Assembly: GCF_964194025.1 (NCBI RefSeq)
Contig: NC_134469.1
Span: 81,096,001 to 81,160,000, forward strand
Reading direction: 5' to 3'
Source: Convolutriloba macropyga
Lineage: Eukaryota
Length of the DNA: 64,000 bases
Both the position numbers and the translations under genes were made by a program. The notes under the pieces are model-generated. The model was given only the letters and a program-made list of their open reading frames with translations. It searched no databases and had not been told where the DNA came from. Positions 5,105-5,928 of the stretch are shown here, piece after piece (the stretch's first letter is position 1; each line of letters starts with the position of its first letter).

Positions 5105-5928
5105 ATGAAATTATCAACGTAAGTACTTTCATTATTTAGAACCTGCGATTTTTGTTGTTAAAGAAACAAATTTTTGTTCTTCGGGTAAATCAAATCAAAC
5201 TTACATGAAAAAATTAACGTAACCGTTAATAATCTTTTCAATTTAATGGTCAATGTTCCCCTTTTAGGGTCCTGGCGACGATAGTCGCGGTGAGTACGGT
5301 GATTTTGCTTGTGGTACTAATGGTTTTCGCTCGATACATGGATAAGAAAATGGCCGAGGACAGATACGAATCGCTAAACGGGACAACGACGGCTGAGCCA
5401 GAAGTAGAAGAAAGTTACGCTAACCAGGCTGAAAATGACTCTCGAATCCGTCGCGAAGTTGAACTTGTCGATGACGATCACACCAGTAACGACACTGACA
5501 GCAACTCCACAGATCGAGAGAAGCGAAACGCTTTTTATATTAAAGCTAAATACAGCTATGACAAAAGGAATAAGGCCGCCAAGCATGAAAAACACGGTCA
5601 TCACTCTCGAGAGCGTCGCGAGGTTGAAGTTGTGGAACCTGTCGATAACGATAGCAACGACACTGACAGCAACTCCACAGATCGAGAGAAGCGAAACGCT
5701 TTTTATATTAAAGCTAAATACAGCTATGACAAAAGGAATAAGGCCGACAAGCATGAAAAACACGACAGTCATCACTCCCGAAAGCGACGCGAGGTTGAAG
5801 TTGTGGAACTTGTCGATGACGACGATAGCGCCAGCAACTCGACCAGGCGGGAAAGGAGAAATGCTAATTATATTAAGGCCAAGCATACTTCTGACAAAAG
5901 GCACAAGAATAAGAAGGGCGGCGAGTAA
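5105..5928 (+). CDS. Two-exon secreted repeat polyprotein / peptide precursor, join(5105..5118,5268..5928), 224 aa
   Basis: ATG AAA TTA TCA AC|GTAAGT donor at 5119 and TTCCCCTTTTAG|G acceptor at 5267 splice in frame into the 212-aa ORF. This gives MKLSTVLATIVAVSTVILLVVLMVFA (hydrophobic signal) followed by three units separated by RIRR/REKR/RERR/REKR/RKRR/RRERR. Units 1 and 3 differ by synonymous substitutions. AATAAA lies at 6173. Confidence 0.88.
5119..5267 (+). other. 149-bp GT-AG intron (phase 2) of the peptide precursor gene
   Basis: GTAAGT donor, AT-rich body, pyrimidine tract then TAG acceptor. Splicing restores frame and supplies an ATG that the genomic ORF lacks (it starts at GTG). 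Confidence 0.82.

Follow-up and report, generated by a model that had tools for sequence, protein, structure and literature searches.

Human histatins are hydrophilic, non-lytic defence peptides rich in His, Lys and Tyr, which are not polyproteins of the kind considered here, and Hydra periculins are germ-line-made defence peptides with acidic and cationic parts and a Cys-rich domain. In the multi-copy Xenopus magainin precursor, acidic intervening sequences neutralise the cationic peptides, as described in PMC3817730. Drosophila Baramicin A and the bee apidaecin named in the same account (PMC8423362) are secreted, carry tandem related peptides at RXRR furin sites and come from a lineage-restricted, duplicating locus. 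The multi-copy neuropeptide precursors of xenacoelomorphs, some of them from the very species studied here, combine a signal with repeated peptides between basic sites, as presented in PMC6188537. Here, we describe a precursor family that shares traits with each of these precursor types and that is, from genomic sequence, real, lineage-restricted and apparently undescribed.

The DNA analysed, hereafter the window, is a 64,000-nucleotide stretch of contig NC_134469.1 (assembly GCF_964194025.1, positions 81,096,001 to 81,160,000). It comes from Convolutriloba macropyga, a marine photosymbiotic acoel worm. A gene adjoining the family copy on C3 has a product 100% identical to a protein assigned by NCBI to this species, and two of the neuropeptide motifs published for it occur in the genome. 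Its forward strand holds, at positions 5105-5928, a two-exon gene with a 14-nt coding exon 1, a 149-nt GT-AG intron and a 224-aa product. A preliminary description had proposed this spliced gene, with its ATG at 5105 and its junction at 5118/5268, and the model is borne out by the splice structure and by an intron position shared among family loci. A second, weaker splice acceptor 27 nt downstream would yield an alternative product of 215 aa. Transcription is likely to start near 5023-5028, 34 nt past the TATA box, as judged from the sequence features given below.

4864 to 5000 (+): likely promoter, a conserved element upstream of the gene with a TATA box (4994) at its end
5028 to 5104 (+): inferred 5' UTR; the TATA-to-motif spacing is the same in locus C1, and the similarity of the intronless copies starts here
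5105 to 5118 (+): coding part of exon 1, ATG plus 11 nt; same exon and donor at four loci
5119 to 5267 (+): intron, 149 nt, GT-AG; same position in loci C2b, C1 and C16
5268 to 5331 (+): remainder of the hydrophobic N-terminal segment (residues 6-26), by hydropathy; either a signal peptide or a type II signal anchor
5332 to 5454 (+): pro-region with two sequons, and first furin-type site
5455 to 5526 (+): acidic spacer 1, net charge -8, two sequons, and site 2
5527 to 5607 (+): basic peptide 1, 27 aa, net charge +5, four His, monoisotopic mass 3227.65 Da
5608 to 5694 (+): site 3, acidic spacer 2 (net charge -8, three sequons) and site 4
5695 to 5778 (+): basic peptide 2, 28 aa, net charge +3, four His, 3416.68 Da
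5779 to 5859 (+): site 5, acidic spacer 3 (net charge -6, one sequon) and site 6
5860 to 5928 (+): basic peptide 3, 22 aa, net charge +5, 2523.34 Da, and stop codon TAA at 5926-5928
5929 to 6190 (+): inferred 3' UTR, with AATAAA at 6173; the intronless C9 copy aligns to about 6160

The exon-1 pattern with its donor was found at four places genome-wide, all of them family loci, against none for a control pattern. Contigs from four sequencing runs, of unrecorded kind, contain the unspliced intron and have no joint across it; they are uninformative on expression. The view that this is the only intact gene in the region is consistent so far with a scan of 27 of the 42 stop-to-stop frames of at least 100 aa in the window, three of which gave weak reverse-transcriptase matches below the cut-off and 24 none. 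The frames omitted were that of the gene, two overlapping it, eight containing N and four made of simple repeats. Elsewhere in the window, a 4.1-kb unit occurs in three tandem copies of 96% identity (6423-18685), each with a decayed reverse-transcriptase fragment, and a degenerate satellite of about 205-bp units lies at 54080-57260. Two related decayed stretches at 61490-63800 are 68% alike and had no Pfam match at 0.01; we take their frames to recall the retroviral-type integrase of large DNA transposons.

In the 224-aa protein, six R-x-K/R-R sites separate acidic from basic blocks at the boundaries previously assigned to furin. Shuffling the post-signal residues gave a mean of 0.51 such sites, and none of 10,000 shuffles reached six. 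Peptide lengths of 27, 28 and 22 aa, a Cys-free protein and the lack of a Gly amidation donor before any cleavage site had all been reported in the preliminary description, and each holds for the window protein. The N-terminal hydrophobic segment has a Kyte-Doolittle 19-residue maximum of 2.99. The eight N-glycosylation sequons all fall in the pro-region and the spacers, where they account for 8 of 9 Asn, and none of the seven Asn of the peptides belongs to one (shuffle mean 2.26, p 0.0007; p 0.007 for the non-redundant part). With 16 sequons, the C1 protein has the same distribution. This confinement supports passage through the secretory pathway. Judged by hydropathy and pattern, the protein has the traits of a furin-processed secreted polyprotein, namely a predicted N-terminal signal or anchor, luminal sequons and repeated sites, and the genome holds three loci with the P-domain of proprotein convertases. 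The secretory precursor with furin-type processing proposed earlier is supported. AlphaFold, run with a three-row alignment, gave a pLDDT of 50.7 and a pTM of 0.16, predicting no fold and modelling only the N-terminal helix with confidence. The preliminary description, which listed several possible functions, mentioned neither glycosylation sequons nor paralogs or intronless copies.

The gene had been called an orphan, which is upheld between species but not within the genome, where the family has eight loci, three with intact frames and five broken. The window gene, C2a, is intact with six sites. Its inverted copy C2b, 444 kb away, is also intact (225 aa, 93% identical, five sites with one lost), and may be a paralog or a haplotype-specific copy. 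At C2:80,652,000-80,660,000, this copy duplicates at least window positions 2317-6305 in inversion at about 95% identity; its intron has gained an insertion of 0.9 kb, and other insertions lie upstream. The third intact frame, C1, encodes 428 aa with 13 sites and six peptides and terminates in a spacer. At the common position, the intron measures 1068 nt in C2b and 367 nt in C1. A nine-row tree separated the C2 and C1 subfamilies, of about 48% DNA identity, with full support. Sites in the three intact frames nearly all precede E-V or N-A, and the family core reads R-x-K/R-R, then N/D-A, two aromatic residues, any residue and K-A-K-H/Y, with an N-S-T sequon immediately ahead of each peptide-freeing site.

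Of the five broken loci, one is C16 and another a tandem cluster at C15:22.8 Mb; the other three, at C15:45.37 Mb and on C9 and C3, are intronless. In the C15:22.8 Mb cluster, the four copies examined were all broken and exon 1 was not found. In the C16 copy (C16:1,347,076-1,350,267), the promoter element is retained but lies about 3 kb ahead of the ATG, an insertion having apparently displaced it. At C15:45,368,200-45,381,100, a 2.1-kb insertion splits the broken intronless copy, and the repeat unit has expanded to a 10-kb satellite of about 58-60 units of 180 and 144 bp, with higher-order periods near 1.17 and 1.25 kb. A giant functional polyprotein was considered for this 58-unit array and rejected, as 32 of 57 spacings shift the frame and variants comprise 3 synonymous and 26 non-synonymous changes. 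From this sequence pattern, the array is best described as a neutrally evolving satellite born from a pseudogene.

The peptides themselves are basic and polar. Pooled, their 77 residues comprise 23% Lys, 13% His and 9% Tyr and no Pro, with 4, 4 and 2 His in peptides 1, 2 and 3, respectively. They are very hydrophilic (GRAVY -1.7 to -2.2, 18-33% hydrophobic residues), and their hydrophobic moments of 0.22-0.36 were equalled by 76-97% of their own shuffles, so they are not amphipathic. In C1, five of the six peptides have a net charge of only +2. An inner KR is present in 3/3 peptides of both the window protein and the near-identical C2b, in line with the two-tier cutting suggested earlier, but in 0/6 peptides of C1, which argues against two-tier cutting as a family trait.

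This composition bears on a fairly unlikely explanation, that of epidermal or mucus host-defence peptides made by gland cells from a polyprotein amplified like Baramicin or apidaecin, and acting without lysis through uptake or through metal or polyanion binding. The high Lys and His contents and the birth-and-death pattern of the family would suit such a role, as would the Baramicin design of tandem peptides between RXRR sites (PMC8423362) and the silencing of cationic peptides by acidic spacers known from magainin (PMC3817730). Acoels are also described as lacking canonical immune signalling, and many infection-responsive genes as species-specific, in a study that lists 29 responsive transcripts (PMC12849515). 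However, the lack of amphipathicity, the extreme hydrophilicity and the low charge of most C1 peptides fit poorly with this explanation, and electrostatic attraction would be expected to be weak in seawater.

Codon comparisons were made between the two subfamilies and among the internal repeats. Over 169 codons of the window gene and C1, pS was 0.88, with synonymous sites saturated, and pN 0.40, falling to 0.25 over the 35 codons of the cleavage sites and peptide core. Internal repeats 1 and 3 gave pS 0.88 and pN 0.20, and repeats 1 and 2 a dN/dS of 0.30. Judged by these ratios, the window gene is under purifying selection and is a functional coding gene. The dN/dS of 0.68 between C2a and C2b comes from 6 synonymous and 16 non-synonymous changes, too few to interpret; their non-coding divergence is about 5%.

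Conservation peaks in the first eight residues past the cut while the peptide tails drift, a pattern that favours signalling peptides, be they pheromones, seminal or endocrine factors or neuropeptides of an atypical sort, with the conserved N-terminal core as the part that is recognised. The tightly conserved promoter and the many species-specific multi-copy peptides reported from acoels (PMC6188537) point the same way. Yet we consider signalling unlikely: known acoel neuropeptide precursors use dibasic sites and short peptides with common C-terminal motifs, 2/2 control genes are single-locus, the combination of predicted glycosylated spacers with furin-only sites is atypical, and the precursor list given in PMC6188537 for C. 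macropyga lacks the family. The N-terminal conservation may also partly mirror the preference of furin itself.

Spacers and peptide tails are about equally conserved (pN 0.44 and 0.39), and the 198 post-signal residues hold 45 Lys and Arg against 45 Asp and Glu, making the precursor charge-neutral. Both observations would be expected of a structural secretion in which acidic glycopeptides and basic peptides were products alike, forming a coacervate glue, a capsule or an extrusome matrix, and acoels do have mucous glands, rhabdoids and sagittocysts (PMC3789126) as well as cells expressing adhesive proteins (PMC8097308). We nevertheless regard a structural role as very unlikely, since pieces of 20-28 residues devoid of Cys are odd for a load-bearing material, and Tyr is replaced by F or W in the C1 subfamily, which leaves no family-wide DOPA-type cross-linking. 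A DOPA glue was rejected on the latter ground.

The upstream element of 137 bases occurs at only four genomic loci, the four intron-bearing family members, which ruled out a transposon as its origin. It is 78% identical to its counterpart in C1 and 77% to that in C16, with a local-score z of 33.6 against C1; the three copies without an intron lack it, scoring 0.3, -0.2 and 1.8. An intact promoter is one reason for finding scarcely credible that the family is decaying and no longer, or barely, expressed, the window copy being intact only through its youth. The broken frames at five of the eight loci, the dN/dS between C2a and C2b, the furin site lost in C2b and the lack of an annotated model could all be read as decay, but the two near-identical copies are both intact and a third intact frame persists in the other subfamily. 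Decay through loss of sex was ruled out separately, as C. macropyga is described as reproducing sexually, and often (10.64898/2026.03.06.710013).

Searches of 1.84 billion representatives, Pfam and PDB revealed no relatives outside C. macropyga. Seven matches were obtained among these representatives, six of them family loci of this genome and one a close C1 variant. The window protein matched five of 568 candidates, all of them the genome's own loci, and the C1 protein none of 8000 scored candidates. The PDB contained no match to the family protein, Pfam gave nothing at the cut-off for the window protein (best E 0.09), and the ESM Atlas returned no usable match for the whole protein. Two candidate hits were rejected: SUIM_assoc (PF16619) in C1, whose E of 1e-12 over five repeated stretches probably reflects low complexity, and a viral nucleoprotein matching the repeat unit in the ESM Atlas (0.77), below the tool's own lead level. 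The claim of an undescribed family thus agrees with the lack of any characterised-family match in these three collections, although homology searches of this kind would miss short, rapidly evolving peptides in acoel genomes that lack annotation.

Among the annotated proteins of C. macropyga and Symsagittifera, no NCBI-annotated model of a family member was found. Likewise, the published list of 22 C. macropyga precursors, built on a transcriptome and mass spectrometry, includes no family member, and six family motifs have no occurrence in its supplement (PMC6188537). Annotation and a survey devoted to neuropeptides thus both seem to have missed the family; low or narrow expression, or masking by the family's own satellite on C15, may explain this. 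In the literature searched, no paper was found to carry the four family peptide motifs or to treat eggshell together with furin, and none of the work retrieved on the peptides, toxins, glands or eggshells of acoels described the family. Damaged Convolutriloba are reported to release a toxin (PMC12849515), and a lineage-restricted family with charge-masked storage might supply it. We judge this extremely improbable, given the lack of a Cys scaffold, of amphipathicity and of any known-family match in Pfam or PDB, and nothing links the gene to toxic activity.

The copies on C3, C9 and at C15:45.37 Mb read straight through the splice junction, the predicted intron being precisely absent, and the first nine residues of the C3 copy are those of the spliced product. 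Similarity to the 5' UTR sets in about 34 bases past the TATA box and is clear in two of these copies (z 22.3 and 8.2) and weak in C9 (2.1), and the C9 copy appears to end near the AATAAA signal. As both subfamilies carry the intron at one and the same place, it is ancestral, and the three intronless copies occupy three separate branches of the tree. We infer that they are reverse-transcribed copies of spliced mRNA, which would make them a record of start site and splicing obtained without RNA data. The C3 and C9 copies showed neither a poly(A) tail nor a target-site duplication; together with the weak 5' match of C9, this means that they may instead have lost the intron by another route.

The C3 copy (C3:71,394,200-71,396,000) has one in-frame stop. 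An intronless CTU2 gene faces it head to head at a distance of about 200 bases, so a promoter common to the two could drive transcription of the copy. Near it, between two similar frames of 160-206 aa, is a frame whose R-G-G-x-C motif presumably recalls arylamine N-acetyltransferases, and a minus-strand frame 4 kb from the C9 copy, compared by eye, is taken to resemble the succinyl-CoA ligase beta subunit.

For a retrocopy to be heritable, the mRNA and the enzymes of retroelements must be present in germline or pre-germline cells (PMC5470649), which in acoels include neoblasts, as described in PMC3789126. The intronless copies therefore argue for expression in germ or stem cells, and the mRNA is likely to be made there. 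As a control, two known neuropeptide genes of C. macropyga were each found at a single locus, 0/2 having extra copies, in a comparison of two genes that detects only copies the search can still score. The gene for the LWD neuropeptide was located on an unplaced contig of small size (C3357:24,426-24,788). An mRNA restricted to gland cells would not be expected to leave retrocopies, which tells further against the epidermal-gland explanation.

Held tentatively and at somewhat less than even confidence, our preferred reading is that of a furin-cut, granule-stored germ-cell product that would protect or coat the eggs. The precursor would enter the secretory pathway through its signal peptide or type II anchor, its acidic blocks would be N-glycosylated, and the balanced, glycosylated product would be packed harmlessly in granules as a neutral polyampholyte. 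Furin cuts, followed by carboxypeptidase trimming of the basic ends, would then free basic 19-28-mers, in which activity might reside in the conserved N-terminal core (two aromatic residues and K-A-K-H/Y), while polyanions or metal might be bound by the polar His/Lys tail. The source would be the germ-line lineage or stem cells, as read from the retrocopies, and this likeliest source is what suggests a role at the egg or embryo surface. That role, in which the peptides would be released there as part of a coat or as a guard that does not lyse, is the least certain element of the reading. A fast turnover of gene copies, seen here in five broken loci out of eight, is in general in keeping with reproductive and defence genes. 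Sexual reproduction is described as frequent in the species (10.64898/2026.03.06.710013). Given budding from neoblasts, the retrocopies indicate a stem-cell source no less than a gametic one.

A more specific proposal, quite unlikely as it stands, is that these are maternally supplied effector peptides, held in oocytes as a glycan-shielded neutral polyprotein and released by furin to select the microbes or algae of eggs and hatchlings, without lysis, via the aromatic-K-A-K-H/Y core. If true, they would represent a new effector class in a photosymbiotic animal without canonical immune pathways, the hatchling being symbiont-free. No acoel defence effector or egg-coat protein was found in the literature searched, and the family supplies concrete, cheaply synthesised candidates for both, in one species.

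Comparison with the known systems puts these features in perspective. In contrast to Baramicin and apidaecin, with which no sequence similarity was found, the acoel precursor has acidic, sequon-bearing spacers between its peptides, removed on both sides, and its peptides lack the Pro of the apidaecin/Baramicin type. The magainin analogy drawn in the preliminary description holds for the alternation of acidic spacers with cationic peptides but fails for the product, as no homology was detected and magainins are amphipathic, membrane-active helices, whereas the acoel peptides are hydrophilic, non-amphipathic and bounded by R-x-K/R-R on both sides. Histatins and periculins showed no detectable homology either, and the periculin Cys-rich domain is missing in the acoel family. 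The neuropeptide precursors of C. macropyga itself, mostly short, dibasic-cut and often amidated as presented in PMC6188537, differ from a family of 19-28-mers with tetrabasic sites and N-terminal conservation. The layout is thus familiar, and the novel points, as read from the genome, are the predicted glycosylated spacers, the non-amphipathic products and the retrocopy record. A design in which putatively N-glycosylated acidic blocks are excised around non-amphipathic basic peptides differs from that of the antimicrobial and neuropeptide polyproteins compared here.
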